DNA from: Psammoneis japonica
Lineage: Eukaryota
Length of the DNA: 64,000 nt
Direction: 5' to 3'
Assembly: GCA_008632985.1 (NCBI GenBank)
Contig: QPGO01000094.1
Coordinates: 230,721 to 294,720 of the forward strand
In this document: piece after piece, positions 19,815 through 53,370 of the stretch
Layout of the letters: every line of letters starts with the position of its first letter
How positions within the stretch are numbered: the first letter of the stretch is position 1
The notes under the pieces: generated by a model
Seen by the model: the letters and a program-made list of their open reading frames with translations, nothing else
Told to the model about the DNA's origin: nothing
The model's database searches: none
Made by a program: the position numbers and the translations under genes

Positions 19815-20854
19815 TGGGGTGTCCTGGCACGCGCGCTGGTTGGTTGGTTCGTTGGCTCGTGGAGGGAATCCTGAGGGAATTCTGCCAAATTTGTCTTGCT
19901 CGCGGGAGGATGCCTCGCACAGTGTGGTTCGTAACTTGGACTTTTCAGTCTTACAGACCAGCCGCAGCCGCTGAATGAAAACATGCCAAAAAAACAACCG
20001 CAGGGGCCACAGTAAAAATCAGCACTCCCATTCAGTCCCGGATTTCTCTTTTTTGTCGCTCCAGAAAATGATGAAAAAAAGAGCTTGGAGGTTTTGCCCA
20101 GTGCCAGCTGCAACATTTGTTGTGTACACACGACCTGCTTCGACCCACTTGACGAATGAAAACATTGAAAATGTGCACTTGCATCAGAGAAAGTGAACTG
20201 TTTCAGATTTGTCGTAGTGCCACCAACAAACTGCCGGCACGTGACGATCTGCCACCAAACTCCCAAAGCAATGATGGCGGCTGCAATTCGGGCAATCAAT
20301 TCCTCCGTCGTTGCACTGTTGAGACGTCACATTGAGACAGGGCATCATGCCAATGCCTCCAGTTTGTACGCCAACGTTTGTTGCGATGAATGATGTGGTC
20401 GTCAGCATCTTCTCGGTGTCGACGCCGAGAACGCCTTTGCCAAGGCATGCAGTGGCAGCCCTAAGAGGCAACAAAAACAACCCCGTCACAGTGCAAATGT
20501 TTGATGTGATTCATTTTTTTTGTGACTGTCGAGGTGCTAGATTAAAATTTTATTCACATGTGTCATGCCTTGAATCATGCAACGAGAAAAGGTTGTTGTG
20601 ATGCTTCATAAAATGTCCGTGTTGTGTGCAGGTGACCTGGACACATTCTGTGCACAAGACCGGATCGCATTCCACGGGACTGAGATGTTTTGACAAAACG
20701 GAAGCTCCAACCCACCGAGGGAAAATCTCACTTTGCACGGGCATTGATCAGATGGTCACACAGCTTCATGAACTCACGAACAGAAACAGAATCTTCGTGC
20801 GTGCCGCGCCAAACCAACCAACCAACCAACCAGCGCGCATGCTGGGACACCCTG
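19815..20854. mobile_element. Non-autonomous TIR DNA element inserted in gag of copia A
   Basis: ~35-bp inverted ends TGGGGTGTCCTGGCACGCGCGCTGGTTGGTTGG / CCAACCAACCAGCGCGCATGCTGGGACACCCTG; removing it rejoins gag in frame (SAPTPGL..LPPKPRDPVRDFK). Confidence 0.8.
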
Positions 20855-22055
20855 ACAAGCCAGGAGTGGGAGCAGATGGTGCTGTGCCCATGGAGAGGGA
20901 CGCTGCACACTCAGGACTAAGACAACAGTTGGTGAACTCCTCTTGTGTGAACAATTGAGGGTCATTGCTGACATCCGCGCTGCCGTGCGCTTTTGCCATG
21001 TACAGGCTAATCAACGCAGCTGTCTGTGCTTTGTAACCATGTGGCAAAGGCACATGACTGGTGCCGTCGTTGCACACAAGGGCATCCAATTGCATCGGAG
21101 TAAAAGTGAAAAGGTCCTGATGCAAATCGGTTCCATCAATGTTGAGGGCGGAGCACAGTGGACTGTCTGCGGCTTGATTCAGAACAGTGCCTAGAATGTG
21201 CTCGAGGCCATCGATTTGCTGTTGCCTGGTGAGAACCATGTTGCAACTGGGTGGGTGTCGGAACCAGCTAGAATCGGAGTGTGGGCTTGAAATGACTTGA
21301 AACTTGACTTGAATCTTGACTTGATGTCTTGAACTGTCTCAAGAGTCAGAAGCCGCTGGGCTGTGACATCCCGTTCGTAGTTGAGTGCTGAGCTTCCTGT
21401 CCGGTCCGTAGACTTGTGCCGGCATGTCCGAACCCGCAGCTGGTGATGCTTTGGGTTGCTTGAGAGCAGAGTGACGGGTTAAAAACCCCTGCTGACAAGC
21501 TGACCAGAGGTGGACAAGACCTCCGAACCGTTCTCATTTTATGTCGGTTGGATGACCCGATCAGGCCGGCCAAATTTGGCGCTGTGGAGGGATGAACAAA
21601 TGTGGGAAATGCACCCTCACCCCAACGCAGGCTGCAATCACGAACTGCTTCCTCTCACAGTTGTCCTTGTGGACCTTGTGGGACTGCAGAGGACCAGCAA
21701 TCCAGTGTGGATACAAGGCAGTAGACTTGGCGTGCGTGGAGCAGAGCCAGAGTCAGGGGTTTGTGTCGTGTGCGCGAGGATGCGAGCGGATGGATTGGTG
21801 GGATCCGCTGTGAGGAATCCGGAATCTCGGATGCTTGAGAATTTGGGAAATCCTGGTCAAACAAACATCTGGCGTTGAATGAACACATCCAACGATGGGA
21901 GGTGTTGGATAAATCCAAACATGTAGATTCAATCCAGCACCCAGCAGTGAAGAAGGTAGATGCATGCTTCCACCGCCAACGGTGCGCGTCGTCGAAAAAT
22001 TTCTCCATGACGATGATGAATGCTCAATGGACAATGAAGAGCAAGACTGTCAATC

Positions 22056-22297
22056 TCACAGAAAATGATGACTGGGTGGAAGAAAACAACAACTCCTTGC
22101 TGCTGTCTAAATGGCAGATGAGTCTCCATGCAGAGACCGTTGCAGGAGCCGAAAGACTGGTGTCGTGATGTCGGCACTGCTGTCATTGTTCTTGTGAGCC
22201 ATGTGGCTCAAAAGCAAACTACATCGCACGACTCGCGTGGAACTGAGAGCACACACAATTGTGTGTGACAAACTAAAATCTTGTTCAAATCCTGTCA
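22056..22297 (-). repeat. 5' LTR of copia A
   Basis: Direct repeat of 15236-15480, followed by TSD CAAGA. Confidence 0.9.
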
Positions 22298-25047
22298 CAA
22301 GAGCTGCACTCTTTTGTTGTCCCAACATCATTGGCCACTTTGTCATTGCTGCTGTTGACTGCAGCTCAGACGTCTTCACAATGTTTTCCCTGTCTGTGTG
22401 GGTTGGCTTCAAACCAAGTGGGCAATTTGCATTTCCCATGAAGTTGAGGTTGCTGGCAACTCTGTCCAGGCTGAGCAAGTTTGGCACCACCCAGATGTCA
22501 CACCGCATGGACTGCATTTTTTGTGCAGCAAGGGCAAGTCTCTTGAAATCTTCAAGGAGAAGACCAACATGTGTTTGAAAGCTGGTTGCCCCTCTGGTTC
22601 TTTTCTGTGTGCTTTGTCTCCATGGCAGACACCCAGTTTGCCAAAATGACTTTTCCAAAGACCTGGACTCTGTTTTCAACAAGTTCTCTGTCAGATCAAT
22701 GTTGTGTCTGCATTGAGTCACAGCACAGAGGGCCTTGGAGAAGCCTTCTCACCTGGGGCCTCTGACTGGCCATGCAATGGGCCACAAGGGTGGGGTGCAA
22801 CCTGCTTCCCACAGCTTGTTTTGGGGTTTGTCAGAAGACTTGCTGCTCTTTTGCTTCCAACAGCACAGCAATGCAAGAAAGGAGGCCTTCTAAACCTTGT
22901 GCTTTTTGCACCATGTGCTTGGTGTTGTGGGAGGAGTGTGTTGCAGGGACACCCATCCAGCAACCCACAATGATCCTTTGCCATCACAGGCTGGGGTGCT
23001 CTGTCTCCCATGCCCAAAAGCTGGATTTGGCAGAACTCTTGCATTTCACCAAAACAGCACACTTGCAACAGCAGAGGATTCTTGGTGAGAGCTCATTTCT
23101 GCTGCACTGCTGTGACCTGTGGTCATGTCACATCTTGCAGCTTGACAACAGCAAGGTCTTTGCCAAGAAATCTTCCTCCTGTGCAGTTGCCCTGGCTGAG
23201 TTGTAGTGGAGAGCAAAGAGATGGGGTCATCAGGTGGCTGCTGCTCTCTCTCTCTCTCTCTTCATCTTTGTTGGAGAGTTCTCCCTCCTCGCGTGCAGCC
23301 ATGAGATCAAGCAACATTGCCACACTCTCATGTGCAAGCAAACAGCACCAAGCACTCCTTTGCAATGCAGTGCACCCCAACATGCCAGCCTGTGACTCGC
23401 AACTCAGCCATTTTGCAAAGCCCTCTTGGACTTGTTCCTTGCATTGTCCACCAGCTGCTGTGCAGCATCCTCAGATGCTGTCCAAGCGGAAACTTGATCC
23501 CCTGCATTTTTCAACACAGGAGCAGCCCTGTCCTTCTGAAGAACATTTTGACAATGTGGCCTTGTTGCCCAACCCCCACCCCTCTTGGTGCTGCCAACGT
23601 GGTGCACTTTTGCCAGGCATGGTGGGATGCCAGCCAGAAAATGCATGTTTTTGTCTGTTCTTCCACTGTGTTCTGTGGAGCCACACAGTGGCACTGGCAG
23701 GTTTGGTGACAACAACACAAGGAATTTTGACAAGTTGATGTGTGCCCCACATGGCCCAGCTTTGTTGATTTGGTGCACCAGAGACTTGCAACAACCAGAC
23801 TCTCCATTGCAAGTCAAGCCAAAGCTGCAATGTGGGACAGAAGCTGCTCTCACTCCCAAAGCCCAAACTGGCATTGACAAGTGCCAAAACATCCAGGTGA
23901 TGAGGCTGGTGTGCTCCAAAAAAGGCACCTCTCTTTGCTCTTAACATGACAGTCATGGTGGCTGGAGAGCAAGCTGAGAAGTGGTTGGCACAGGCAAATT
24001 GTCATGCCTGTGGTTGCCCCCCCCCCGCCATGTGTGCAACAAAAAAAAGGTCTGCCCCTGCTCCTTCTTGACAGTGATCTGAGTGACACAATTGTGCAGA
24101 TGACATTTGGTGCAGCTGCTTTTCTGCAGCTCTTTCCTGTGCTGCCCTGGTGCCACAAATGTGACATCATTTTTGTGCAGCTCTTTGCAAACAGCTCTGC
24201 AATGTGAGGAATGAATGTGGGTCAAGAAGCCTGCGGCACTCACTCTTGAGTGTGATTCTCAACAGCACCCAGAAGAGCTGATGCCTGAATCAATGGACAC
24301 ATTTTGGCACGTTGTTCACCCATGAAAGGCACCCCAATGTGAGGGCACAAAAACCTGACAGCACTTGAAAGTCACTGAAATTGTCAACAAGCCTGTCAAT
24401 CCATGCTGAACAAAGGAGAGGCAATGTCTGCAAATTGTGAACAAAATGCAGCAGTTCCAACAACATTGTTTCTTCTGTCCTCGTGAAGCCAAAGTGCAGT
24501 GTGCATTGACAGACTTGCACTGGACAGCTCTAAAAACACTTTTGATTTTGTGGCTCATCATTTTCAAGGAATCTACAGATGGTTTGGAGTGCAATCTGGA
24601 GAATTGCCCCAGGTTTGTTGGCAGTGCATGGTGCACTGCAGTTTGTGTTAGATCCAATGTTGGCAGGGACAGATGAGTTGGCCCCTCTTTTTTCCTTGGC
24701 AGCTGCCTCTTTTCTTCAAGGAGGGGCCACAAAAGGCCACCACCCATGACCCCTCTCTGCAAGACTGCTCCCCCCAACTGGCCCAGCCCTGCTGGCTTGA
24801 GAAGACTCAACACTTGTTTTGCAGAAGGCCAGGGGGGTGAGACTTCTCTCCCCATGCCATGGCAACAGTGCTGGAGATGCTTTTTGAGGTGTCACAACTG
24901 TTGTCAGCTCCACTCTGTCTGCTTTGAACAGAGACACATCATTGTCAAATGCATCTGTCCTGTCTGGTGCATTGCCATCCTTTTTCTCAGTCTGCCATCA
25001 AACCATGTGCACTTTGTCAGTGAGTGTCTGTGGCTTCTGTTTTGTTG

Positions 25048-28000
25048 TGACAGACATCCGAGATGGGGAGCACACTCCCTTGTGTCGGACAGACTAGCAT
25101 GGACAGCATGGAGAGATCCGATGATCTCTCCTTTGCTCACTTTCTTTCTCATCCAGCACACGATTGTCATCTGTCCTAGACATCCGTTAGATTGTCCTGA
25201 TGCGCTAGTCTGTAAGGTTGTGAGCAGCAGTGCACTGTTCCTCTTCCTCTACACTCATCTGTTGCAACGCCTGTTGTGTGATTTGGCGGCTTTTTCTTCG
25301 TTGAAATCGTCATCATTGTCACAGCTGTTTTTTCACCTCTCGATTTGTGATCAAATGACCACTGCAGAACACATGCCAGAGCTCTACGTGGGAATTTGAT
25401 TTTTTTCCCGCGCAACCATGGTGAACAAAAATCAAAACGCCATCGATTTGACCAAGATCAAGACAGTGCGGGTTGAATTCAGCCCACATGATCGCTTGCC
25501 CGATGCCCGTGCTTTCCTGAACACCCTTTGTTTGGACGCGATCCCTGCTCCTGAAGATCTTTTGGATGGATTTGCCCCTCAAGGCCTCAAGAGCGATGCT
25601 CTTGCCATTCTCCGTCACAAGATCATTCAGAATCTCATCATCCCTGAAGCCACCCTGACCAAAGATCTTGCACGAATCGGACCGATCATTGAAAAGGCTC
25701 CTCTCTTTGCAGCCACCCCTCAAGGCTCCCCGGTTCGTCTGAACCTCAGCACTCTTCAGAATGCTGTGGTTGGAGCGATCACAGAGAACCACAGCACCAC
25801 AAAGGTGTGTGTTGGTGCTTTGTGTTTCCATTTCAGTCCTGATTTCCAGCATCATGATTGCTGGGATGACACCTCAGATGATCCGCATCCAGTCCCACTG
25901 GCTGCTCCAAGTTCTGCATCCCCATTGATTGCTGCTGCAGGTCCCACTCCTGAAGACTTTGCTGAGGCCCCAGCCACTCACTTGCATGGTCCAAAACAGT
26001 TTGAGCAAGCCATGACAAATGCATTGAAGAACTCTGCTCCCAAGGTGTCGTCTTCTGCACCGTCTGCCATGACTGCTGCTGGTGTGGCTTCTTCATCAAC
26101 CACTGCCAGTGCCACACACACCTTCAATCTGAAAGGACTTCCAAAGGATGTGCCAGCCTGCTGTCAGCACAAGGAAGCTGGGAAAGCAGCACTTGGCAAA
26201 TCTCTGGTGCCCCGCAAGTCTGGAAACCTTTGTTGCGAGGATGGCACTGAGCGTCTCATCCTCACTGATGGTTCACTTTTTGTTCATCGCACTGACTGGG
26301 ATGCAAAATCATTTCTTCGTGATCCTCTCACTTGTGATGACATCTCTCCTCAAGGAATCCGTGCATGGTGCATTGCTGCAACCCAACAAGCCTCGGCTTG
26401 TGGCACACACATGCATCCTCTGTGGTGTTTTATCAAGGATGGTGGAAATTGGGGTTTCACCTGTGGTGATGATCCCACCGATGATCTGCCTCTCCGGATG
26501 ATGGTGGCACTTGAAAGAATGAAACTGACTGTCTTCCAGCACATTCAGAAAGTTGGAATTTTTCCGGCAGACTCCAAGCACCCTGACATCGTTCACCAAT
26601 GTTGTGGTGATGGACACACGGCTGTCAAGATGATTCTCTTTGACATCCCACCGATTTGGATGAAGCGTCCATGTGAGTTGATCAAGAGCTGCCCGCACCA
26701 AAACAATCTTACGGTCCTCAGCTGTTGTGCTCCATTCAGAGACTGCCTCCAGCTATGAGCTGTCATCTCCAATGTTGATGCATCTCTTGATGACCCTGGT
26801 GAGCTTGATGTCTTTCTCAGCAATGCCCGCTGTGGCGAGCACCTTCACCGTAAAACAGCGGACGCCCAGGAAGACAAGACCAAACAACACAAGTTCACCC
26901 AGAAGAAGATTGTTGAAACTGTTAGTGCGATTCTCAAGGAACCGGACAGCCCAGCTCTGCGTGTCAAGGACCCTCCCAAATGTCCTCCACGTCATCTTCA
27001 CACTTCGCCTCCTCCTTCTCTCGCAGCTCCTGTTCGCGGTCTTGCCTCACTTCCCCAGGATGAAGTTTCTACTCCGCCTCCAGCGATTGAAGAGCCTCCC
27101 AAGGAATCTGACTCTCCTCCCACGGAAGAACCCACGGAAACTGTGGAACATTTTGTGAATGAACTTGCTGCTGTGGATGTTCCTGCAGATGATGATGCAC
27201 AAGCCCTCCATGGTGTCTACAAGGCCTGCATCTATGGGATCAAGTCCTTGCCTGCCATTGCACAGAACTGTCCATGTGTTGTTTGTGGCAACAACCACTT
27301 TTCCATGAGTGTCCTGTGTTGAACAATGCTGAGTGCCTGCGCACCCATCTTGTTCGGTTCTCCCAGTTTCTTCAACGTGACCAGCGTGCCCGTGATGCAC
27401 TTAAGTCTGGCACGGCCAAGAAGGATTTTTCCCAGGGCCACTGTCATGTTTGGACAAACAATGCCGCCCATCCTCCTCCAATCCGAAAACTCCTGCAAGC
27501 GGGGTAACTGTGAAAGAGGGTCCAAACGACTTGTTGCCTTCTGCTGCTCCTCCTCTTTCACCTGTCTCATTTGCTGCCCTTCTTTCGAGCTCGACGAAGG
27601 CTGGCACTCCTGATCCCAAGACAATTCCTGATGATGACCCTGGCAATCACAATCAGGGGAGGGAATTCGATCCTCCCACATTGGATGCTGATGCTCCATT
27701 GTCCACTGATCAAGACCAAGAATTTGAGCATCTTGATGTGACTGACACCCAGCATTTGTCGCCTCTCAGTGCCGCGTGCATCTCCCCGATTTTTTCTCCC
27801 CCGGAGTCACCTACGACCTTTGCATCCTTGGCTGCCCCAGTCATTCCCATCAATCATGTGCTTCGTGATTCAACGACACATCGTGCACAGATTGATGCTG
27901 GTGCTTGGGCATCCTGTGCAGGGGACAAGAACCTCCTCCACACCTGTGCTCCTTTTGGACCGGACAACCCATGCCCTTTGAAGATGCTTCCGGCTGCTGA

Positions 28001-31000
28001 AGGCTCTGATGCGGTTCCTCATGGCTTTGGTCACCTGCAGGTGCCTGCAGACAATCCTGAAGGCTTTCTTCTCGTGTGCACTTTTTACCATCCCAGTCCA
28101 TGTTCCACTTTGATTGATGAACGTGATTTTGCGCGGGCTTCTGGTTTCAAATCTCAGTCCATTCGCTCCGAGCTCCTTGAGAAGACATGTGCCAATGGCA
28201 CTTGCACTTACACTGCTTCCACTGACACACAAGCGGCAGTTGTCCATGGCGTGCTTCGACATGGCAAGGCATTCACACAACCCCTGGTTTCTCCATCTCC
28301 GTCTGGCATCCCTTCGACATCGACGACCCCTGACTTGTCCTTGGTTGATGACATTGATGATGCATGTCAACGTGCAGTCTTTTTTGTCAACATCCAACAA
28401 GGTCCATCTGATCCCTTGCTGATGGATGCTGAGCTGTTTTCGATGCAGTGTGACTCGGCTCCGTTGTCCACCCCTGCTCCTGTCCGCTCTCTCAAGGTTG
28501 AGACTGAACGTCTTCTGTGGCATCAACGCCTTGGACACCCCAGTGATCACTGCTTGTTCAATGCTCACAAGCATGTCAAGGGCGTCCCCAAGTTCCGTCA
28601 TGCCAATCCTGTCCTTGATGTGTGCCCTGCATGTGTCCAAGCCAAGCAAGTCAAGACTCCTGCTGGACCAAACACGACTTGGAAGGTGACCCAACCACAC
28701 CAAGGTCTCACTGTAGACTTTGCTTTTGCTGGCCAGACTTCCAAGAATGAAGCCCACAAGGTTGACCATCTTGGACACAATGGTGAAACCTGTTGGATTG
28801 CTGTCTATGATCATCACATGCGGATGCTCCATGGAGTGGCAAGGGTTTCAAAGGCCAGTCCTCTCAAGTGGCTTTGCCGATTCTTGGATCGACATTCACC
28901 AAATTGTCGTGACAAATGTGTGTTCATGGACCAAGGTGGGGAATCGTGCAAAAACCCCAAAGTTCGTGACCTCTTTGAATGAGAATTCCAGTGTGACATC
29001 TGTCCTTCTGGTGCTGGCGCATCCAACCAATGTGGGCCTGTTGAATGCTCACATTCAACTGTTGAAAACGCGATTCGCGCAATTTTAATTGGTGCCAACC
29101 TTCCGATCCGATTCTGGCCCTGTGCATTTTACCACTGCCTCCGCATCAAGAATGCCACTCCTGCAAAAGATCAAGATGTGGCACCCATCACTCTTGCTGC
29201 CAGAAAGGTCGAAGATTTTACCACTCTGAAGACTTTCGGATGTCGAGCATGGTCCAAACGGTCCACTGCTCGTTCTGCTGCCTTCCGGACCAATTCCAAG
29301 AAGAGTGTCTTCCTTGGTTGCCTTCCCAACACCCTCAAGAATGTCATGTGGTGGGATCCTGAGACTGATGAAGTCAAGACGGCCAAGCATGTGCGCTGCG
29401 ATGAAGGCACGAATGACCCATTTTTGGATCAACTCCCTCCCAATGCTGTCCATTTGCAGCGTGTGGAAAATGGTCAGCCTTTTCCAGCTGAAACACAGGA
29501 CACCACCGTTCCTGTGTTCACGTCTTCATCGAATCCGTTTGCTGCGACTGTTGCATGTACCATGAAACGTCCTCCAAAGGACCCTGCTCATGGTTTTGGA
29601 TTTTCTCAGTGTGCGCTAATGGACCGTGTCCATGTGTCGGAAATCAAGCAGCGCAGTCCTGCAGCTTCATTGTTTTCTTCCCTCCATGCCACTCGTAACA
29701 AGATTGTGGGTGCATGCGTTGTCTCTGTCAACAAGCGTGAAGTCTTTACTCCTTCGGATGCTGAAGAGGCCTCATCTCAGGTCTTCCATGATGTAACTCC
29801 GACTTTCGAGATTGCTTTTGCGCCGGAACGACGATTGGATTCTTGCACTCTTAACAAGGCATTTGAGGAAGCGGAGTCATTTGAGCCTGACACTGTGGAG
29901 GACGACTCTCATGTTCCTGAACTTGCTTTGGAAGATGTGCGATCTATTGCGGCTCTTCTCTGTCCTGATGATGATTTTTCGGATGAGGCCATTCCTGCAG
30001 ATGTCTTTTGTGCACATCTCAATGCGATTGGCTCCCGCTCACTCACTCCGGAGGAAGCTGCTCTTGACCATCTCACCCGTGCCAAGCTTCGTAAACTTGA
30101 CACATGGCCTGAATGGGAAGAAGGCGAGCAGCGTCAACTGGACCAATTTCATGCCCTGGGCATGTGTGGTCCTCCGCAACCACGTCCCCCTTGCGCGAAC
30201 GTCACGCGTCCGCATTGGGATTGCATGGCAAAGCCGGATGGCCAACGTCGCTCCCGACAATGTGGTGATGGTTCCAAGTCGGCAATGCCGGCCTTGCATG
30301 AGTTGACTTCCACCTGTTCGTCGTGTGTGGAACGTTCTGTCAAAAAGATGTTTTTCGCTCTCAGTGTGGCTGTGTCGCATCGTGTCTTCGGAGGCGATGC
30401 ACGGGATGCCTGTGCTCATTCTCCTGGCCCATCCCAACCGGTTTTTGTTGCCATTGATGATGCACATGCTGCCTGGCATGAAAAGAGATTTGGCAAGAAA
30501 GTGCCCCGCCATTGTGTTCTCCCGCTCAAGCATGCTCTCCAAGGCCATCCTGAAGCTGGTGTCCTCTGGGAGAAGCACATCAACTCGATTCTCACGGGTG
30601 CAAAACTTCTTTTCCGCAACACTGCTCATGACAAGTGCATCCATTCCGGTGAACATGATGGTGTCAAGGTCCTCCTCCTTTGTCAGGTTGATGATTTTGC
30701 TCTTGCTTGTCCATCTAAAAAGATTGCAAAAGAGATCTACGACCACATTGGCAGGGCTCTCCAGATGGAGAATGAGGACACTCCTCCCTTCAAGCATTTG
30801 GGCTTGGTTGCTGAATTCAATGGCATTGATGTCATTCAAAATGACGACTCAATCACTGTCAACATTGCCAGCTGCCTTGACCATGTTTTCAAGACCCATG
30901 GTTGGGATGCTCCCGCTGCGCATGAGTCTGATTCTGATTTCAAGGCTGCACCTGTTCCGGTTGATTGTGTTCCTGATCTGTGTGCCACTGAAGGTCCTGA

Positions 31001-32103
31001 AGAGGGTGCACCCAAGCATGATGCTCTTGCTGAGTCCCAAGGATTCTTGCGCCGTTCTGTCTTGGGTGAACTGGTCTTTGCCCACTCCTGTTGTCGTTTG
31101 GATGTTGGCTGTCCCATTGTCACCTTGTCCAAGTTTTCCAAGGCACCGGCTGAGCTCCATTGTGATTCACTCAAGCGCATGGCCAAGCATTTGCGGTGCA
31201 CCAAACATTGGGGACTGACCCACAAGAAGTCTGGGCGCGATCCCGGCCTGCCTCCTCGCGATTTTGAATGGCTTGAGGATGACCCATCTCTCCTGGATTT
31301 TCCTCGTGCTGTTGACCTTTTCCAACTTCTTGGATTCATTGATGCGGCACATGGCAATGAACTGTGGCATCGCCGTTCCACCACTGGACACGCGCATGTC
31401 CTTGCTGGTGCTGCGATTGACTGTCAATGCCGCATGCAAATGATTGCCGCTGCTAGTTCCACGGAAGCTCAGTTCCTCGCGGCTGTAACTGGTGCGAAAC
31501 AGACCCTGCACCTCCGCACAATTCTGGAAGAATTGGGTTTTCCCCAACGTGATCCCACTCCCTTGCACATTGACGACTCCTCTGCCATCCAGATGATCAA
31601 CAACAAGGTGCCTGCGGAGCGATCTCGTCATGTTGACATTCAACATTTTGCCATCCAAGACTGGCGTGACGCAGGCAAGATTGTCACTCGACATGTCCCG
31701 GGTGTCATTGACCCTGCTGATGCACTGACCAAGGCCGTGGGTTGGATGCTCCATTCCCGCCATGCCCGCCACTTGATGGGACACTGCCGTTGATTGTCAT
31801 CGGGTTTGTTGTGGATTGAGTCTTGGGTGTGTCTCTGTTTCATTTGTTTTGTTCTTTGCTGTTCTGGTCCTCTCTTTTTGTTCGGATTCTCTCTTTCTTT
31901 CTTGTTGAGCATTGCATTGCTCATCAGGGGAGGGTGACAGACATCCAAGATGGGGAGTGCACTCCCTTGTGTCGGACAGACTGGCATAGACAGCATGGAG
32001 AGATCCGATGATCTCTCCTTTGCTCACTTTCTTTCTCATCCAGTGCACAATTGTCATCTGTCCTGGATGTCCGTTAGATTGTCCCGATGCCGCTAGTCCG
32101 TAA
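25048..32103 (+). mobile_element. Ty1/copia LTR retrotransposon B, full length, inactivated
   Basis: LTRs 25048-25215 and 31935-32103; TSD TGTTG (25043-25047, 32104-32108); PBS-like GGTTGTGAGC at 25216; PPT AGGGGAGGG ending 31934; gag from 25418; LWHQRLGH..CPAC integrase Zn finger; RT (ALQGHPEAG, QVDDF); RNase H (DAAHG, SSTEAQF, DPADALTK) ending 31793. Confidence 0.95.
25418..31793 (+). pseudogene. gag-pol of copia B, broken by in-frame TGA stops (26756, 28980) and a frameshift near 27300
   Basis: ORFs 25418-26758, 27274-27507, 27450-28982 and 29178-31793 are collinear with copia gag-PR-IN-RT-RH. Confidence 0.85.
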
Positions 32104-32948
32104 TGTTGACTTCATTGCACCAGCCACTGGGAGGTGTGGAGTTAGCTGACTTGATTGAGCTGTTGTCAACAGTGACTTTTTCCTCTTCTGGCTCTGAATT
32201 GAAGGCTTGGCATGAAAAGACACTCCTTTGCACTGGCACATCTTGTGCCAAAGGCACAGTGGTGGCCATCAGGCCCTCCACTTCCCAATGCAATGAACAT
32301 GCTGTGGTCAAGTGCTCTGGCAAAAGAGCTGCCTCAGCTTTTCCTAAAAAAAACAACCATCACAGGAAAAAACAGGGGGGAGAGGGACAGAAAGCAATGA
32401 TGCAGCCTGCCTTGTGCCAAGAAAACAAGCGGGGCTGGTTGCTGTGAATGTTGAAAAAAGTTGGTGCAAGCTCAAGAACATCAGAAAGAAACAGATGGTG
32501 GCACCCCTCTCACTTCTTGTGGGAAAAAAAATGGCCCAGAAATGTTTGGGATTTCCAGAACACAAGCCAAGGGAACAGCCAGTCGGTCATCCACAAGATG
32601 CCACTCAAAAAGAGCTGGCCAACTGCACATGTTTTTGTGTTGTGTGTCCCTCTTTGGTGCACAGCCAGTCCCAACAAGCTCCTTTTGCAGATTGGCCAGT
32701 GTTGGGGGTTCATCTGTTACAAGCAAGGCAAAACAAGCAAAGTGAGAGAGCAGCTGGCTGTGGGCCCATGATCTCCAAAGCAAGCTGCCATCTGTGCCCA
32801 CCACCTTGCTTGGGTGTGCAGTCTTGCAAAGCTCCTCCCACGGATTGTGGGCATCAGACTCACACATTGCAAGTGAGACAAACTGTGCCACTTTGCTTCT
32901 TCTTGACTCAGGGTGTGGAGAAAGCACAGCTGTCAGCCAAAGGCACAC

Positions 32949-32955
<7 letters not shown>

Positions 32956-32980
<25 letters not shown>
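32956..32980 (+). repeat. (GA)n microsatellite
   Basis: Direct reading. Confidence 0.9.
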
Positions 32981-35900
32981 CAGTTGGCTGCAAACCACAA
33001 CAAGCTCAAACAACTGGCTGCACACACATGGGCTCACTCTGAGAGCTGTCTGTGCATGAGCAGGGTTGCCCAAGTTAGAAACTTTTGAAGCCTGTTTGAC
33101 TCATGTGTGCTGATGGGCATCTTGAAGAATGACTTTGCAACACAACCAACAACAGAATGACAGACCCTTTCACAATTGCTGACATGCACAGACAGCTCTG
33201 GCTGGCTTTCCCACTCAGGCTCATTCCAGCCAAACAGTTGCACACAGACTCTAAAGGGATTCAATGTTGATGAAGGAAACTCCAACAACAACCCTTTGCA
33301 TGGCAGCTGGATTTTTGCAGCACACAGTGTCATGTCCCATCACTTCCATCTCAACCTGGTGCCATCTTTCAAGCAAAATAACTCATCTTAAATCCCTGAA
33401 AACAAAGTCATGTGTGCAGGAGCATCCAGCTCCCTCTTTTCTCCACAAGAGTGGCCCAGCTGCCTTGCTCCACTTCTTCTCATTGTCCACAATCTTTGCT
33501 CTAGAAAGTCTTGTCACAAACCCTGTGGAGAGCCAACTGTGCACCTTGTTGTCAAACCATTGGCCCCTTTGTCTTGTTGCCACTCTGTTGGCTGCAGCCA
33601 AGACCTCTCGCTGCACAGTTTCCCATCTCTGTCAGAGTTTCCCATCTCTGTGAGAGGATTGACTTCAAACCAAGATTGTCACAACTCCCATTTCCCATGA
33701 AGTCAAAGTCAGTTGCTCTGTCTGGGCTTGCCAGCCAGATGTCACCAGACAGGTCATGTTTTTTCTGCAACAATGACAAATCTTTTGGAATCTCTCCAAG
33801 AAGAAGACCACGGTGTTCACAGGTCACTTCCTTGCAGTTTTTCTGCATGTGTTTCATCTGCTTGGGGCAGTTGGAGCTTTTGTGCTGGCATCACTTTTGG
33901 GGCATCTGGAGTGTTGAAGCCTTTGTGCCATCATCACTTGTGGTGGCTGGAAATTTTGCACTGGCATTGCTTCGGGTGGTTGGAGCTTTTGCACTGGTGC
34001 CACTTGGGGTGGTTGGAGCCTTTGAGCTGTTGTGCCATCATGCACAGTGGTTCGAGGCTTTGTGCCACTGGTGCTTGAGGTGGTTGGAGCACTTTGACTT
34101 TTAAAATGCACTTGTGGGACATTTTTGCATGTGGAAAAGTTGCTGCAGTCAACGTGGAATTGGAAGAAGCTTCACATCATGCCCCCCGCTGCTGTTCAGC
34201 TGTTGTCATTTCTTGGCTCACCATTTGCCAGACTGTTGTGCACTTGCTTCTGGTTTGATGGATCTTTGTGATTGCCAACACACAACAGCCCAACTTTGTG
34301 CTCAAACCAGTGCTTTTGGACATCAACGCAGGTGCAACTGAGTGTGATCTCTTGTTTCTTTCTGCTCTTTTTGTGGCATGGCACAATGGCCAATGACCTT
34401 TGTCACATCCAATGATTCACGCTGCATCAGATTTTCACCTTGGGCACCTGGTGACACCAGATGGGCAGTGCAAACATTTTTTCAGAAATTTCGCAGTCCG
34501 CGCCATTTCAGCATTGTTCCATGGACAAGACATGCTGAGTCATGCTGCAAGCATTGCCTTTGTCAATGACTGCAATGATGGATGCACTGCACACCAGTTG
34601 TTTTGGTGCAGCTGCTGTGGTGGAGAAAATCCAGGTGTTGGAGGGCTTTCAAGACCAAACACGCCATCAAAGTTTTCTGGATCATGTCTTTGCAGAGTGC
34701 AGCCAAAAGACAATTCCATTCAATGAGAGCATTGCATTGCATTGCATCGGACTGCTTGGGGAGCAACTGTTCATGCAGGAGACAAGGGGAGATGCCTCTC
34801 TTGAGGTTGCACAACATCACAGTGCAGACGATGACAGATGCCGCAAAAGATGACAAGACATGCCAAAGATGAAGATTGTGAGAAGATCTCTTGCTTGGAT
34901 CTGAGCAACAAATTGGGCCAATGGTCAATGATGTCACTCCAACCACTGTCACTGGAAGACTTGGCAGACATTTCTTCCAGAAGAAGATGTGACAAAATCT
35001 GTGAGACAAAATGAGTCATCACCTTCTGTGAGTCAGACTTGTGACTCAACTGTGGCTCATCTCTGGGAATTCATGTGGATTTCACACAAACCAAGGTGTC
35101 CTTTTTCAGCAACCAATTGACTCGTGTGTTTTTGAGTGGACATGATGGAACAAAGAAAGTCCTTGTGCATGAAAATTTAAAGCCCAGTGAATCAGCTGAG
35201 ACAAGCACTTTCCCCCGATGCTTTTTTGTCACCTGCAACCAATCCAAAAACATTTGATGAGAATTTTGAGTCAGCACTGATTTTGATGGCAATGAGCCTT
35301 TTCATGTTGAGCTGCAGCAAAAGTGTGGCCACCAGTTGAGAGCACCACAAAAAATGCAGCCTTGTTGACAACAATGTCAAATGACATTGAGACCAGTCTG
35401 TCCCAGTGGCGTGCTCCACATGGGACACATCAACAGCACAAGCTCACACTCACAAAAGCAAGGGCTGCACCACTGAATGCCTCAATGATTGTGTGAATGA
35501 TGGCACAGAATTAGCACAAAGCATTGCTTGTTTGTCATGTGCAGGGGTGGCCCATCATGCACACAAGTGCTTTTGTGCAAATGGCTTCTGCCACATTTAC
35601 AAAGAGGCTGGTGGCACAACTCTGCCAGGTGCCTCAATGGTTCACTTGACCACTCATTGGTTGTCCAGTGCCTTGGCTGCACGCATCACCCACCACCAGT
35701 GGGGGAGGGCTCATTGAGCTCTGTTTCAAATTTGTGTGGTGAAGTCTTGACCAAGCAGCAGCTGGAAAATTGATTGTGTGCCCCACTTGTTGTGTGCAAG
35801 ACCCAGACAAGTGACCCATGTGAGTTTGAACAAATTTCATGTTTCCATGGTCTCTCTTCAGTAAAATGGTGTGAGCAAAACATGACACTTGGGGTTTTCT

Positions 35901-36545
35901 GTTCATGTGACAGGGCATGGGCACAGTCTTGTTTTGGTTCAGAAGAAGGAAGGGCTCCAGTTTTGGGTGGTTGAGACAAACACTTGTGAGCAAGAAAGAA
36001 GAAGTGTGGGCAGTGTGTGCCTTCTTTTCAGCACCTTGCAAAGAAGCTGAGTGTGAAAAGTTTAGATGATGAACAAGAAAGGCATCAAATGATGAAGATC
36101 CCTTGCCTTGGGACCCATGCCCTGTGATTGCAATGAGGTTTTAACAGACTCTCCAGGTGTTTCTCAACAAAGCACCTCAGAGGAGACATGCTGTTTTGGG
36201 CTGCAAGCCAGAAAACACTCCCAAAATCATTCCACAGGGCAAAACAAAACTCTGAATTGACACAGATTTGGTTGGGTTCTGCCAGGCCATGTAGAAAATG
36301 AATGGGTTGAAATCTCCGGCATGCCCATTTTCACATGATGAGAGATCAGCAGAGAGCTTTTGGAGACTGTGGTGTCATTGCTGTTGTTGTTTGCTCTGTC
36401 CTCATTGTGCAACAGAACAGATTGTGAGAACAGGAATCAACTGACACCATCACAGCTGGTGGTGCTGATGATTTTTTTGCAGCTGTTGAATGGGGACAAG
36501 AGGTGAATTGAGTTCAAAGCATTCTTCAAGCAGGACAGGACTTGA

Positions 36546-37030
36546 GTGCTGCAGGATGGCTCACTGGAGGACACTCCAATCTTTTTGGCTTTCAGAGTCC
36601 AAAATGATGACATGTTGGAGTTCCTCCTGGGGTGCAATGCCAACGTGAACCATGTTTTGACACACGCTGAATGTCACCATTTTGTGCCACTGCACAACAC
36701 CACTTGCTCCAGACAAATGCCCACAGCAGCCAACAAAGCACAGTTGCTGCTGTCCCATGGGGCTGAAGTGGATGCTGCAGATGACAGGGGCTCCACGCCT
36801 CTGCGCGCAGCTGCCTCATGCAGTGATGGCACTGTTGCCAAAGTCTTGACACAAAATGGCTCTGATTTGAGTGCAGTTGACAGATGTGGAGACAGACCCT
36901 GCTGCACAATGCATGCTTTGGCATGCATGAAAATGCAGCATGGGTGCTGATTGAAGAAGAAGCAAAATTTGAATGCCAGTGACAGCACTGGGTGCTGCAC
37001 TCTGACTCATGTTGCAATCAGAATGGCCTG
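36546..37030 (+). pseudogene. Decayed ankyrin-repeat gene fragment
   Basis: TPIFLA..MLEFLLGCNANVN, LLLSHGAEVDAADDRGSTPLRAAA, VLTQNGSDLSAVDRCG ankyrin-like repeats, then stop or frameshift. Confidence 0.75.
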
Positions 37031-37941
37031 CAAACCCATGAGTTTGGTTTTGATGGAAGCTCATGCAAAACATTTGTTGGCTGTTGACGGTGCCCATGAT
37101 GATGGTGTGTGGGTGCAAGCACACCAGTGGGACACAAGAAAACCCAAGAAGGCTGAGTTTGCTGTTTTCCATGCTTCAACAGAAACCCAATTTGTTTGAC
37201 TGCTTGCAACAAGAGCCGAATCTAAGGAAGTGCAAGAGGTCCAGCTGATTTGTTCCTTCCTTCCCATGATTCAGTGTGCTTTCAAACCACAGAAAAACAG
37301 TTTGTTGTTCTTTGAGCAGTGCCAGTTTGTTTCTGTTTCAGAGCATGCTGCAATTTTCCACTCGCACAAAGTTCATCACAAATGGTGTTGCATTCAATGC
37401 CGTGCTTGTTCCTCAAAGGGAGTTGGACTAGAGCACAAAGCAGAGCACCTCATGTCTCTAAAGAAGTCAAAAAGTGGCATCCTCTTTTTGAAATGAACAA
37501 TTGGGAAAAGACAATTGAAGTCCAGAAATGATCACGAGAAATGCGTGTGCCATTCTGTTGCAGCTGGGCAATCTTTTGTGTCTTTCATTTGATCAAGAGG
37601 AGCAGAGTCTTGTGCAACACATTGCACAAACAAAAAAAATGTCAACACTGTGCTGCATCTCATGGCAAACTTGTTTGAGCAGCACAAACCCCTTCGACTG
37701 CCATTTGCCCACACATGCTGGCATCACAGAGCAGTTGTTTTGAGTTGACACTTCAAGCAATGATCTGGTGCACATGACAACTTGGTGCACAATGTCAGGC
37801 CACAATCTTTTCTGGAAAATTTGAGTGCAGCATTCCTTGGAGCTGTTCACGCTCATGTTGTTGTTGGCACTGTCCTTGTTTGTCTCCAGTGCAATGTGTG
37901 CAACATCTTTGAGCTTTGCGGATGATGCTGTTGCTGTCAAC

Positions 37942-37970
37942 TGTTGTTGTTGTTGTTGTTGTTGTTGTTG
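37942..37970 (+). repeat. (TGT)n microsatellite
   Basis: Direct reading. Confidence 0.9.
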
Positions 37971-40900
37971 CAGCAGCGGCAGAGGACAACCAGCCCAAGT
38001 TCTTTGTGCAGCAGGCTCTCCAAAGCACCATTGTGTCTTTCTTGTGGTCCTTGCACAGGTCACCAATCTCCCTTTTTTTAAGCTTTTTGAGCAATCTGAG
38101 TTTCTTTCTTGCCACCTCCTCTGACAGGACTGTCCCCAAAGCTAGATCTTGCAGGAGGCAAAGGATGAGGTCATCAGGAGACCAAGAGGTTCTCCAGAGG
38201 TGGCCTTCTCAAGGAAGTTCTTCCCTTTGTTCTCACTGTCTGCATCAAGTTGTTCATCAAATGAGGGGCCATGCTCAAAGTTTGTGAATCCACCAGATTT
38301 GACATTGATGATTTGCAAGCCTTGATCACCCTCTGCATTGCAGATGTGTTGGCATCGGTCCCAAGAATGAAGCCCACACAGGATCATGCATTCAAACCTT
38401 TCTTTTTGGCCCCAATGACACCTGCCAGGAGGGTGGCCCCTGTGTTGTTTGCAACCACAATCTTCACATTTAGCCCATTCAGCACTTGCTTGAGAGCCCA
38501 ATGCCAACCTTGTTGCCCACCATCCCGGGAGTGCCAATCTCTTCAGTCCAGCACTCCAGAATTCCCTCATGATTGTTGGCAGCAATGGCAGGAAATGAGA
38601 AGCAGAAGCCAATTTTTCCAAACCAACAATCATTCATCTGCTTGAGCTTGGTCACCAAGACACTGCAAAAGTCCTCTGCAGTCAACCCTTCTTCTTCTTT
38701 TTCCTGTCCAGGCATGTGCTGTGGATTTCCCATGATGAGAATGATCTTTCTGCTGCCAGGCCAATTTTCAGGATGGTTCTGCCAGCATCAATTGTTGCTG
38801 CAGTCTTGTTCCAAGGCACTGCTTCCAGGCCTTTTGCCAAAGCATGTGCTGGAAACATGCCCAGAGAACTCTGGTGTTTCCTTTGTGTCTCTGCTGTTGC
38901 CATCAAGAAGGATGATCACAATTTCTCAATGGCCCCAGTTCCCGCCATCTTTGGACAGGGCGTTGCACCCAATCTTTTAAGACTTCACAGCTTCTCTGTC
39001 ATTTTGATTCCTGCTGGTGATCTGCATGTGACATTCTCCTTTGAGAGTCATCATCTGTGTCATCCAAATGACTGGGTTTGGCCATTTGCTGTCACTCTCT
39101 CATGGCTCCAAGGCAATGTCCTTGTCCATCCAAGTGTCACTGCCATCAGTTGACACTGCTTGTTGCACTTTGGCAAGATCATGATGATGCCTGTTTGGAT
39201 CGAATTTCCCATCTTTTGTGTCTTTGCATTCATCCAATTTGCTGCTGCTGGGCAGAGAAAAAAGAGCTTGTTCTTTCCATCAGTGGGTGCGTCAACCAAC
39301 CAGCTGTCCAAGAGGTTTTGGCCTTCTTCTCTCTGATTGTAGATGTCTTGAGAGCTGCACACTTGATGGCAAGAAATTCTTTGAGACAATCAATGCTGTG
39401 TCTGCAGTGAGCACCAGCACTGCAGGCCTTGAAAAAGACTTTGTGTAGAGCCTCTGACTGGCTCACACCTCTTTCTGGGATCTGTCAAAAAACTCTTTTT
39501 TGTGCCACCAACATTCCTTCAGTGCAGAAAATGAGGCAATCTGTGCTGTGCATTTTGAGCACATTGGTGACTTTTGCAGCACCAGCAGGCTTTCCTTGTC
39601 AAGACTGGCAAAACCACCAAGGCGAAGATCACCCACAGAGCTCCTCCACTCTTGCCCCCCTTCAACATCTGTGGCAATGCATGGCTCTGCTCAACCAAGT
39701 GGCAAGCATCAACTGTGCTTTTGTGTTGGCCAGCACTTGCTGCTCTTCTTTGGTGTTGGGGTGGTTGGTTTGTGCACCAGCAGGAGCCGGGCATGTGCAC
39801 AAGCTCCGTGGAGCTTGGGGGCTGAATCACAGTGTGGTCATGTTTGCTTGATCATGCTGAAGTTTGTCCCTGAACTTGGGGTGTTTTTGTTCACTCTGTG
39901 GCCAGCTTTTGGGCTGGCTCTTGTTCTTCTTCTCCCTCATCAGCCTTTTCTTCATCAGGCAGGTTTGTGCTGCACACAGCATCATTTTTCAACTCTTGCA
40001 GCTGCGCCGGCCAAATGCCAATGCACTGGAGTGGACAGAGACACCATGATGTGCATTGCTGGCCATGACTGCAAGAACTTTGTGGGCCACCTCCAATGCC
40101 AGCAAAGCCAACTGTGGCAGCTTTTTGTCTGGGAGTTTTGTCTGGGAAGTCAGGCAAAAGCAACTTGGTGCCTGATTTCTTGTAACTCAATTTTTTGCTT
40201 TCCTCTCACTGCAGTCTTTTGCACATGGTGGGCCACTCTCATGAACTCAGCCATGAAGCCACTCTGCAGAATGCACCCATCCTCCTTCAGCACTTTCATT
40301 TGGTGCTTTTCTCTGCTTCATTCCCATCCAAGGTGGTTGCTGGAAGCACACAAGAGGAAGAGCCGCTTTCCACTCCAAAACTCTGCTTTCTCATCCTGAG
40401 ACTCAAACATCTTGAGGCAAAAGTCAAAAGCAGTTTTTGCATGAGTCTCTGCAGAGGCTGACTGACATGTGGAAGTTGCAGCTTGTGCACAGCAAGCACT
40501 GCATTTTGCACTCAACTCTCTTCCATCAAAGCCTCTTGTTTTGCCAGATCTTTTCTTTTCTTTCCAGAGCCTGTGTTGATGGTCTTTCTCTTTGACAATT
40601 GCTGGCGGTGCTTCAGCAATTTGTTGACTCTGTTGGCATTCTTTGTGTTTGGTGGCTGTTGTGGAAAACTGAAGTGCCTCCATGGAGCCAGGTGCACTGG
40701 TGTGGGGGCCTTTGCAGCAGGAGAGCAAGCAAGCAAAGTGAGCCCCCCCCGGCCTCACACCCCTGCCCCCACAATCAACTGCCTGATTGCAGACTCCACA
40801 ATGAGAACAGAACTGAGGGCAAGAAATTGATGATCTGTTTTTGCAGGGAGACTTCTTGGCGAACATTTTTCTGGCCGCTTGCAGCTTCTTGCTGCAGCAA

Positions 40901-41823
40901 GGTGATCTTGATGCACAGCTCTTCTGTCACAAGTGGCACAACAAAAGAACCATGAAAGTGATGAGATGAAAGAGGGCTTGTGTCTGTTGTCATAAAATGG
41001 CAGCACTTGTTGTTTTGGGATCACCGCGGACATTCATCCAGCAGCTGACAGTCTTTTGCAATCGAAAAACCTGATGTGCTTGTCAGTTGGTTTTGAGGGA
41101 CACTTGGATTTGCCAAAACAGCCTTTGCAACAGGGGGGCTCTTTGAGAGAGTTGAGCTCCATTGTGCTGTGACTGGTGATCATGTCATCTGCACTTTGCA
41201 GATCATGAAACAGTGAGGTCTTCACCAAAGAAATCTTGCTCCTCTGGGTCATTGTTGTTCTGTTTGTCTTCGTTGGAGGAATCTTCCTCCTGTCAAACGA
41301 CTTCATGAAAACAACATGACCTCACTCTCAGGCACAAGCACCAAGCACTCAGTACTGCAATGCAAACCTGCAACAACGTTTGATACATCTGCCAGTTTCA
41401 CACAGCTTGCTTCATCATTTCACAAAACCTTGCTCTGATGTGGACTGTTTTGATCCTCCGAGGCTCGGACAACTTTTTGCAGATGTCACGCTCAAAATCA
41501 TCATGCTCTATACAAGCTTCCTGAGCGCGTTGTCCTCTTTGAGGAAGTCGTTGCTTTGTTTTATTGGGTGTCAGGGGTTGAAGACAGAGCGATTTGGACT
41601 TACGTAATATCTCAAGCATGCAAAGTGTGTCAAACTGTCTCAAAACAATGGCATCTCAACACCGAGGGCTTGAGGTTCCTCGCTCGAAATAGAAAGAAGC
41701 TATATCGCCTAATCTATTGTCAATGTCCCATATTCAAAAACAACATTATACGACTTATTCTCCGAATTGCGTCTGCTGTGGATTCAAAGGTACCGTCATA
41801 CGAAAGTGTCGGAAACTGTATGG

Positions 41824-53277: not shown

Positions 53278-53298
53278 GGGGATGTGTTGTCTTCGAAT

Positions 53299-53370
53299 GC
53301 TGGTGACCATGGAGCATCAGAAGGTTGTTCGGACGCTGGTGACCATGGAGCATCAGAAGGTTGTTCGGAC
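53299..53370 (+). repeat. Perfect 36-bp tandem duplication
   Basis: GCTGGTGACCATGGAGCATCAGAAGGTTGTTCGGAC x2, no spacer. Confidence 0.9.

Follow-up and report, generated by a model that had tools for sequence, protein, structure and literature searches.

To our knowledge, targeted hypermutation directed against mobile DNA has been well studied only as fungal repeat-induced point mutation (RIP) and as APOBEC/ADAR editing in animals. In RIP, C is changed to T, mainly at CpA, on both strands of the repeated or mobile DNA of ascomycetes, a process which creates TpA and lowers the GC content. Mutation at TpA has been described for Bigelowiella natans in a preprint by Mettrop et al. (bioRxiv 10.64898/2026.01.13.699255), according to which 230 of the 231 new mutations observed in two integrated viral regions of mutation-accumulation lines are A>G or T>C, all of them at TpA. 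The same preprint reports, for the B. natans genome, TpA-poor and CpA+TpG-rich clusters and coding sequences, enriched for reverse-transcriptase and DDE domains; deamination is proposed as the cause, and an ADAT2-like protein is pointed to, again as a proposal. Here, a stretch of 64,000 nucleotides from the diatom Psammoneis japonica (contig QPGO01000094.1, positions 230,721 to 294,720), referred to as the window, was analyzed, starting from an original prediction concerning the pol gene of copia B, a long terminal repeat (LTR) retrotransposon in which conserved tyrosines are now read as cysteine or histidine.

The original prediction had located a change of TA to TG or CA within copia B pol. 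The change is indeed present there, but its scope is wider, as two blocks of about 27 kb and 10 kb are affected. Block 1 (14555..41350) holds copia B, a second copia-like element, called copia A, and unclassified decayed sequence; block 2 (44690..55100) holds internal duplications and an 8-nt tandem array. Both are depleted of TpA and CpG, and they are separated by an island of normal composition (41500..44690), which contains an open reading frame (ORF) of the PRP38 family at 43109-44275. In a 1-kb profile, the observed/expected ratio of TpA within the blocks is mostly 0.00-0.16, the highest value, in a single 1-kb window, being 0.27, with CpG at 0.05-0.92 and TG and CA at 1.3-2.05; in the rest of the window TA is at 0.36-0.87 and CpG at about 1. 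Strand-symmetrised ratios, blocks versus flanks, are 0.07 vs 0.61 for TA, 0.41 vs 1.04 for CG and 1.67 vs 1.10 for TG/CA. Only these dinucleotides differ, all others being within 10% (for example AA/TT, 1.22 vs 1.14, and AG/CT, 1.00 vs 1.00). Base composition is equal, with a G+C of 0.498 in the blocks and 0.492 in the flanks, the AT>GC changes at TpA being balanced by GC>AT ones at CpG.

The edges of the blocks are sharp. At about 14555, 41350-41500, 44690 and 55100, TA density switches over a distance of a few hundred bases, and host ORFs of normal composition adjoin the blocks (WD40, DUF760/EF-hand, PRP38, acetylglutamate kinase, Fip1 and class I tRNA synthetase). Within this one 64 kb window, TpA loss is limited to the blocks, and the neighbouring genome is normal.

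Fungal RIP resembles what is found here: it too is a DNA-level transition hypermutation, is restricted to mobile or repeated DNA, hits both strands, ends sharply at unique genes and leaves dead elements behind. It would, however, raise TA, whereas here TA is erased and the GC content is unchanged, so that the TpA gain by which RIP is defined is not seen. The TpA ratio of 0.07, the CA/TG ratio of 1.67 and the unchanged base composition of the blocks rule RIP out, as the original prediction had argued for copia B pol.

The B. natans case is much closer. There, as here, A>G or T>C changes are reported at TpA only, giving TpG or CpA according to the strand, and TpA depletion is accompanied by CpA+TpG enrichment. 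The two cases differ in the host, a stramenopile here and a rhizarian, the chlorarachniophyte B. natans, there; in the targets, which are blocks of LTR retrotransposons here and integrated viral regions in the preprint; and in extent, TpA observed/expected being 0.07 here, near saturation, against a Rho of 0.45 given for a nucleocytoplasmic large DNA virus (NCLDV) region of B. natans. CpG is depleted in the present blocks, whereas the Results and Discussion of the preprint report no such depletion. A rule for the 3' neighbour is derived here (see below), while the text of the preprint contains neither the word 'context' nor 'trinucleotide', and does not mention diatoms. Finally, the evidence reported for B. 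natans consists of de novo mutations in culture, and ours is comparative only. In literature searches, this preprint was the only report on TpA hypermutation to be found, and none on diatoms was returned; a term look-up in two papers on diatom transposons (PMC2806351; bioRxiv 10.1101/2025.10.24.684338) gave no mention of dinucleotide bias, RIP or hypermutation in the text covered. What is new here is a TpA-specific hypermutation signature in a diatom, at saturation and with a context rule, of a kind known only from the B. natans preprint.

Copia B lies on the forward strand of block 1, between two direct repeats with approximate ends, the 5' LTR at 25047..25220 and the 3' LTR at 31934..32108, which are 91% identical over 175 nt. 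The gag-side ORF (25400..27319, forward strand) is in a frame different from that of pol and is interrupted by one TGA, at 26756. A homologue (P0060) aligns to this side of the element, at 26558-27298, with its 233 N-terminal aa. The whole pol (27405..31793, forward strand), encoding protease, integrase, reverse transcriptase (RT) and RNase H, consists of 1463 codons with an internal TGA at 28980 and a terminal TGA, and no frameshift is found across the frame. Its downstream part (29178..31793, forward strand), comprising the integrase end, RT and RNase H, encodes 871 aa followed by the TGA stop. Two Pfam domains score above cut-off, gag_pre-integrs (aa 363-415 of 27405-28979) and SH3_retrovirus (aa 78-143 of 28983-31790), while RVT_2 (aa 512-638 of 28983-31790) reaches only 24.6 bits, the decay of pol having brought it under its cut-off of 31.6. 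The integrase precedes the RT, which is the copia order, and the RT is of the RVT_2 type. In a public protein search, full-length copia polyproteins carrying PF13976, PF25597 and PF07727 match copia B pol at up to 56% identity, with E-values down to 1e-198, and an exhaustive HMMER search agrees. The best named matches are from two diatoms, Cylindrotheca fusiformis and Nitzschia inconspicua (45-55% identity). Judged by sequence, copia B is a dead Ty1/copia LTR retrotransposon of the diatom copia lineage. Two copia polyproteins which are 50-53% identical to copia B pol (P0016 and P0044) are labelled as belonging to a Flammeovirgaceae bacterium metagenome-assembled genome; they probably stem from diatom DNA that was misassigned to this bacterium during binning.

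As predicted, the downstream part of pol retains one Tyr in 871 aa (a TAC codon at 30738, within KEIYDH), and all ten peptides quoted in the prediction are found at their places. The whole pol contains 5 Tyr in 1461 residues (0.34%), along with 57 Cys (3.9%) and 75 His (5.1%), and only 21 TA are left in the 4389 nt of the frame. The corresponding medians of the 120 homologues returned are 3.67%, 1.57% and 4.28%; at the median Tyr frequency, the probability of finding one Tyr or none in 871 aa is 2.5e-13.

In order to locate the losses, copia B pol was aligned with 45 homologues of at least 1250 aa, and 532 columns conserved in at least 80% of the sequences were considered. Of the 21 conserved Tyr columns, 19 have lost the Tyr in copia B, which has Cys at 10 of them, His at 6, Phe at 2 and Arg at 1. 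Non-Tyr conserved columns are instead kept in 408 cases out of 511 (Fisher p = 3e-11 against 2 out of 21); conserved His (23/23) and Trp (14/14) are all intact, and every other residue type is kept at 48-92%. Intact homologues carry Tyr, and not Cys or His, at the Tyr columns. The prediction had named nine motifs as containing a converted Tyr. When these were compared with 17 homologues, eight (LGMC, STC, DAC, (KC)IH, PFKH, AKH, TTGH and PLH) turned out to match columns whose most frequent residue is Tyr (in 9-17 of the 17 homologues, the others having mostly Phe). The ninth, DIQHFAI, did not: the column of its His reads His in 10 of the 17 homologues, Tyr in 4 and Phe in 3, so that this residue does not derive from a Tyr. 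In RRSTTGHAH, the second His falls on a column which is Phe in 14 of 17. In a protein (P0049) encoded on the contig of a related metagenome locus, L006, described below, the Tyr columns affected in copia B likewise read Cys or His, often with the opposite outcome.

At the codon level, the 122 changed conserved columns include 25 TA>TG, 10 TA>CA, 8 CG>TG and 4 CG>CA changes, the rest being 20 other single transitions, 25 transversions and 30 multi-step changes. The inferred A>G changes are preceded by T in 25 cases out of 29, and the inferred T>C changes have A as the next base in 10 out of 14. CpG decay of Arg CGY codons also contributes to the Cys and His excess, with 2 Arg>Cys and 3 Arg>His changes among the conserved columns; this share was not mentioned in the prediction, whose inference of TA>TG/CA is otherwise supported. 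Ile>Val changes follow a codon ending in T in 8 cases out of 9, and Thr>Ala changes in 6 out of 7, so that the TA rule also acts across codon borders.

A codon table was also produced, comparing positions 30120-31790 of the window with 10 relatives (5539 codons), obtained by choosing 15 intact-looking metagenome relatives and dropping 5 of them for in-frame stops. Codons containing TA, as well as T|A junctions between codons, are nearly gone in copia B. Per 1000 codons, TAT falls from 20.6 in the relatives to 0 in the window, TAC from 26.9 to 1.8, TTA from 9.7 to 0, CTA from 16.1 to 0, ATA from 10.5 to 0, GTA from 9.4 to 1.8, and T|A junctions from 63.2 to 3.6. Conversely, TGT rises from 7.4 to 26.9, CAT from 21.3 to 52.1, TTG from 4.9 to 21.5, CTG from 6.7 to 19.7, and GTG from 4.7 to 10.8. 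The lost TAT and TAC codons (47.5 per 1000) are regained almost wholly as TGT and CAT (+50 per 1000), while TGC and CAC barely shift; either the ancestral codon was mostly TAT, or a third-position C was also changed, for example in TAC|G via CpG decay.

The direction of the change was further analyzed in related copies from metagenomes. Over 79 related loci, the whole-locus TA observed/expected ratio is 0.23-0.84, with a median of 0.65. In 500-nt windows, L011, L069, L033/L034 and the element part of L006 reach 0.07-0.46. The contig of L006 includes an edge: TA is at 0.21-0.46 in the copia part (1-3500) and at 0.5-0.95 in the flank (4500-8483). Among public proteins, 8 of 266 related sequences show less than 1.5% Tyr, with raised Cys.

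A family of 11 metagenome copies, with 76-90% DNA identity, allowed changes to be read against a consensus, defined as the column majority in at least 7 of the 11 copies. L033 has changed 53 of 76 consensus TA (31 to TG, 22 to CA) and L006 44 of 76, while the other nine copies have changed 4-21. Reverse changes, from TG or CA to TA, are found at 13 (L033) and 8 (L006) of 359 sites, and outside TA the changes in L033 are few (A>G 21/542, T>C 27/477). At the sites mutated in both L033 and L006, the outcome is the same in 19 and opposite in 11; the opposite outcomes indicate that the hits are at least partly independent. The TA to TG/CA direction given in the original prediction is thus found in the low TpA and raised TG/CA of the blocks, in the TA loss of L033 and L006, in the rule acting across codon borders and in the codon table: the TpA-erasing signature is real, recurrent and directed.

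The bases surrounding TA influence its loss. In the blocks 167 TA survive; relative to the flanks, loss is 98.7% for RTAY, about 90% for YTAY and RTAR, and 68% for YTAR. A model with four parameters was fitted, in which hits on the two strands are independent, the survival of each strand depends on the base that lies 3' of the A, and overall survival is the product of the two; either the flanks or 52 intact-like relatives were used as proxies for the ancestral sequence. The model reproduces all 10 strand-collapsed NTAN classes. With the two proxies, the per-strand survival is 0.69-0.73 for TAA, 0.39-0.45 for TAG, 0.20-0.22 for TAC and 0.06-0.07 for TAT. Under this fit, the mutability of 5'-TAN would follow the 3' base in the order T>C>G>A, independently on each strand. 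In L033, RTAY is mutated in 22 cases out of 24 and YTAR in 4 out of 14, and YTAY has become TG in 14 cases and CA in 5. Among the Tyr codons of copia B, TAY preceded by Y gave 8 Cys and 2 His, and TAY preceded by R gave 2 Cys and 4 His. The copia B LTRs keep 4-5 TA each, and the 5 TA in 175 nt exceed the 0.84 expected from the ORF rate (p = 0.002). This excess was considered as a sign of mutation of the internal region before insertion, and rejected, the TA of the LTRs being in CTAG, TTAG and GTAA, which are resistant contexts.

The two LTRs of one element are identical at the time of insertion. Those of copia B now differ by 3 TG/CA doublets (TG in one copy facing CA in the other), 3 TA/TG, 2 CA/CG and 2 TG/CG differences, 1 transversion and 1 indel; apart from the indel, only 1 difference falls outside the TA, CG, TG and CA dinucleotides. 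The LTR pair of copia A has 7 TG/CA doublets. Taken together, six LTR or duplicate pairs of the window show 31 TG/CA doublets, 35 CG versus TG/CA and 9 TA versus TG/CA differences, beside 41 other transitions and 58 transversions, mostly in the two oldest pairs. A TG/CA doublet can only have passed through a palindromic intermediate, TA or CG, that was resolved differently in each copy; chromosomal DNA was therefore mutated after the duplication, on either strand, and the timing is post-insertion. The LTRs of the same element differ at TA/TG and TG/CA, which excludes transcript editing as the sole cause, in line with the case made in the original prediction against single-strand RNA editing. 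That both strands were hit is evident from the 10 Cys and 6 His outcomes within one frame, and from the random interspersion of TG and CA in the partly mutated relatives: no strand-coordinated clustering is detected in them (30 runs vs 27.7 expected, and 26 vs 24.4). The higher frequency of TG over CA on the sense strand of copia B was considered as a strand bias and rejected, intact relatives being already at about 1.4 for TG and 1.15 for CA.

Copies of the same family were also found in raw sequence data. One public sequencing run contains 54% of the sampled 31-mers, while two runs of the same sample contain next to none, and no RNA run with the stretch was listed; the former may be the source sample of the assembly itself, and is not independent support. 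Of the contigs assembled from it, 3342 were placed on the stretch, and 623 of these are at least 99% alike. They reveal many diverged relatives of copia B, which differ at 687 transition and 103 transversion places, and in which TG/CA doublets recur.

CpG loss accompanies TpA loss in the blocks, to a variable extent. CpG observed/expected is 0.05-0.2 at 22000-25000 and 32000-41000, and 0.43-0.71 in copia B (25000-32000), where TA is equally low; this suggests different ages or methylation histories of the sub-blocks under one saturating TpA process. Diatom transposons are reported to be CpG-methylated through DNMT5a (PMC9998398, in the part consulted). Decay of methylated CpG accounts for the CG to TG/CA changes seen in transposon blocks, as in those described here (CpG 0.05-0.7; 35 differences between repeat pairs), but it cannot remove TpA, and TA loss is more complete, and uniform across sub-blocks in which CpG varies. 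Our reading is that two processes are at work: methylated CpG decays at an ordinary, slower pace, and TpA is lost by a second process, which is faster and saturating. The borders of the two signatures do not coincide exactly on the left side of block 2, where TA is gone from about 44690 and CpG density is normal until about 45170.

We consider it likely that the blocks are the product of a targeted, DNA-level TpA hypermutation of transposon-rich sequence, acting after integration and changing TA to TG or CA on either strand. In the mechanism that we propose, the A of 5'-TpA-3' would be converted to G on either strand, giving TG or CA, each strand being hit independently, with a preference for the 3' neighbour in the order T>C>G>A. 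The process has run nearly to saturation and stops within a few hundred bases of host genes; methylated CpG decays (CG to TG/CA) in these blocks too, at a lower rate. For coding regions this means that TAY (Tyr) becomes TGY (Cys) or CAY (His), the TTA, CTA, ATA and GTA codons are lost, and Ile>Val and Thr>Ala after a T-ending codon follow from the same rule; TAA and TAG vanish, so that long frames stay open. The direction, the restriction to one dinucleotide, the hits on both strands, the timing after insertion and the sharp block edges are what the data show. As to the chemistry, adenine may be deaminated to hypoxanthine in DNA, an ADAT2/TadA-like or other deaminase being our leading guess. 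By analogy with what has been proposed for B. natans, the function would be a host defence against mobile or foreign DNA.

The ADAT2/ADAT3 tRNA adenosine deaminases would be a candidate class for such DNA chemistry. The amphioxus BjADAT2, the one natural ADAT2 reported to act on DNA, deaminates both A and C there, with a preference for 5'-GAA-3' (for A), 5'-TCG-3' (for C) and hairpin loops (PMC10354150, as far as consulted). These contexts are unlike the 5'-TAY-3' found here, so the enzyme class stays a candidate only.

Several points weigh against this reading. Copia B has no closely related unmutated copy, its best homologue being 56% identical; a metagenome scan with the copia B protein gave 89 pattern matches and no relative, and a second, alignment-based scan gave relatives at 37-57% protein identity, none of which aligned to the window DNA. 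Since no close DNA relative was found, the ancestral state of copia B is taken from protein conservation and from a different, though related, family, which also provides the polarisation at the nucleotide level. The context model assumes that ancestral TA contexts were like those of the flanks or of the intact relatives, and in L006 the 3'-pyrimidine preference is not visible (YTAY changed to TG in 9 cases and to CA in 10). At 26467-8, among 40 of 790 difference places, every other contig of the public run reads CA and the window TG; states of this kind, which most family members have in common, may mean that some of the mutation is older than the dispersal of the copies, or that a doublet arose in one lineage via a TA intermediate. 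Finally, CpG and TA loss coincide, and both palindromic pyrimidine-purine steps may be targets of one and the same process; the variation of CpG between sub-blocks at about equal TA loss counts against it.

Among the alternatives to deamination, a modified base at TpA that mispairs at replication, such as 5-hydroxymethyluracil, a base-J-like thymine pairing with G, or N6-methyladenine, is the least unlikely, although we regard it as rather unlikely; none of the present results speaks against it. In dinoflagellates, hydroxymethyluracil is enriched at TpA. An A>G change on one strand and a T>C change on the other give the same sequence, and if thymine is the target, the order 5'-TA[T>C>G>A] can equally well be written as 5'-[A>G>C>T]TA; loss limited to blocks with sharp edges would suit a DNA-modifying enzyme targeted to chromatin. 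Deamination is, on the other hand, what is proposed in the only precedent, the B. natans preprint, where it is itself a proposal. No report of such a base modification at TpA in diatoms turned up, no search having been aimed at it.

Changes made during retrotransposition, by A>I editing of the RNA genome and/or editing of the single-stranded cDNA, and inherited on integration, would account for the mutated states common to most family copies, and for the first nine outcomes, which L033 and L006 share; part of the load can indeed be inherited by copying. As an explanation of the blocks, such editing is quite improbable. Differences have accumulated between the copia B LTRs (3 doublets and 3 TA/TG), between the copia A LTRs and between duplicates that are not LTRs; TG and CA outcomes are interspersed, without strand runs; the blocks include sequence that bears no sign of a retroelement (such as the ankyrin and hexokinase fragments, see below); and a pol deprived of 19 out of 21 conserved Tyr could not have driven its own further copying. 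The B. natans events are reported in integrated, single-copy DNA. ADAR hyperediting and APOBEC editing of cDNA resemble the present case as deaminase-driven transition hypermutation of retroelements, but they act on RNA or single-stranded cDNA and leave strand-coordinated clusters, whereas here both strands are hit, the outcomes are interspersed and the changes are post-integration. ADAR also prefers a 3' G, against the T>C>G>A order fitted here. For these reasons (both outcomes in one frame, no strand runs, LTRs that differ), ADAR-like hyperediting fixed by reverse transcription was rejected. According to the B. natans preprint, ADAR favours a 5' U (bioRxiv 10.64898/2026.01.13.699255).

The coincidence of TA and CpG loss in the same blocks could also suggest an error-prone patch repair of the polymerase eta type, known from somatic hypermutation, triggered at WA motifs by the T:G mismatches that derive from 5-methylcytosine deamination in methylated transposons. 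WA is the hotspot of polymerase eta, and TA and AA are both hit by this enzyme. AA/TT, which makes up half of the WA motif, is not depleted in the blocks, AG/CT is unchanged, and sub-blocks with mild (0.43-0.71) and with severe (0.05-0.2) CpG loss have lost their TA to the same degree. Mutagenesis of this type was rejected on the dinucleotide ratios, and the explanation is very improbable.

It is extremely improbable that the signature is a sequencing or base-calling artefact, in which modified bases of heterochromatin are misread as TG or CA, and the real DNA keeps its TA and CG. The library type of the public run containing the stretch is unrecorded, and its sample may be that of the assembly. 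Its contigs nevertheless reproduce the sequence, as reported above; the 1463-codon frame is free of frameshifts; the two LTRs have different outcomes at the same site; and metagenome contigs of other studies carry the signature too, to an intermediate degree and, in L006, next to a normal flank, as do 8 of the 266 public proteins. Selection on an element lineage for avoiding UpA and CpG in its RNA, as is common in cytoplasmic RNAs and many RNA viruses (PMC3829696, as far as consulted), would agree with the TA ratio of about 0.65 of the intact relatives, but is almost certainly wrong, since the changes destroy residues conserved in 80-100% of relatives, bring RVT_2 under its Pfam cut-off, and extend to non-coding DNA, to LTR pairs since their insertion and to unrelated sequence over 27 kb and 10 kb.

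If targeted TpA hypermutation is accepted, a broader proposal can be put forward, which we hold tentatively and place a little short of an even chance: diatoms would possess a RIP-like defence working in the opposite chemical direction, in which a DNA adenine deaminase, or an equivalent base-modifying enzyme, aimed at transposon or foreign chromatin, turns 5'-TA(Y) into TG on either strand until every TA has gone. Combined with the Bigelowiella case, this would point to an old defence, extending over the stramenopile-alveolate-rhizarian (SAR) group. In that case, TpA hypermutation would not be a quirk of one alga, and the question would move to a group in which knock-out tools and the practice of mutation accumulation are available. 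The blocks would represent a natural end-state, from which specificity can be read (TA only, per strand, 3' T>C>G>A, sharp edges), and the per-strand T>C>G>A rule would help, as a fingerprint, in the search for the enzyme among diatoms amenable to genetics.

The signature also has consequences for annotation. Scans based on GC content miss TpA-poor blocks, because their GC content is unchanged. The loss of TAA and TAG opens long false ORFs in all six frames, which gene finders would call as genes. Decayed transposon proteins lose their Tyr and fall under Pfam thresholds; some of the sequence left without annotation in diatom genomes may be accounted for in this way. In the present blocks, stops are nearly all TGA, because TAA and TAG have been erased, and stop-free frames of 110-580 aa are found on both strands, often overlapping.

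A Pfam search was performed on the 103 block ORFs of at least 110 aa lying outside copia B pol, a set including the copia B gag-side ORF at 25400-26755; only two matches, neither of them a transposon domain, were above cut-off. They are an ankyrin-repeat ORF (36546..36947, forward strand) and a Hexokinase_2 fragment (38145..38633, reverse strand; 27.8 bits, cut-off 24), both in block 1. They could be decayed copies of host genes, captured genes or part of an integrated foreign element. Copia A, the more decayed of the two copia-like elements, lies on the reverse strand at 15238..22298, between LTRs at 15238-15481 and 22058-22298 which are 88% identical; weak matches to the RNase H region are found at 15546-15962 and 17243-17443.

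In block 2, two tandem arrays with a period of 8 nt are found at 47683-48540, with 42 overlapping copies reported; they sit within duplications at 47339-50234, which are 96-98% identical. An acetylglutamate kinase ORF of normal composition (55113..56231, forward strand) starts at the edge of this block; its best named relatives are from Nitzschia, Cylindrotheca, Seminavis and other diatoms, at 65-83% identity, as is expected of a diatom host. Two opposed ORFs, at 6996-8630 (forward strand) and 10499-11971 (reverse strand), each show a weak match to bHLH-MYC_N (29 bits, cut-off 30.2), and are probably paralogous host genes.

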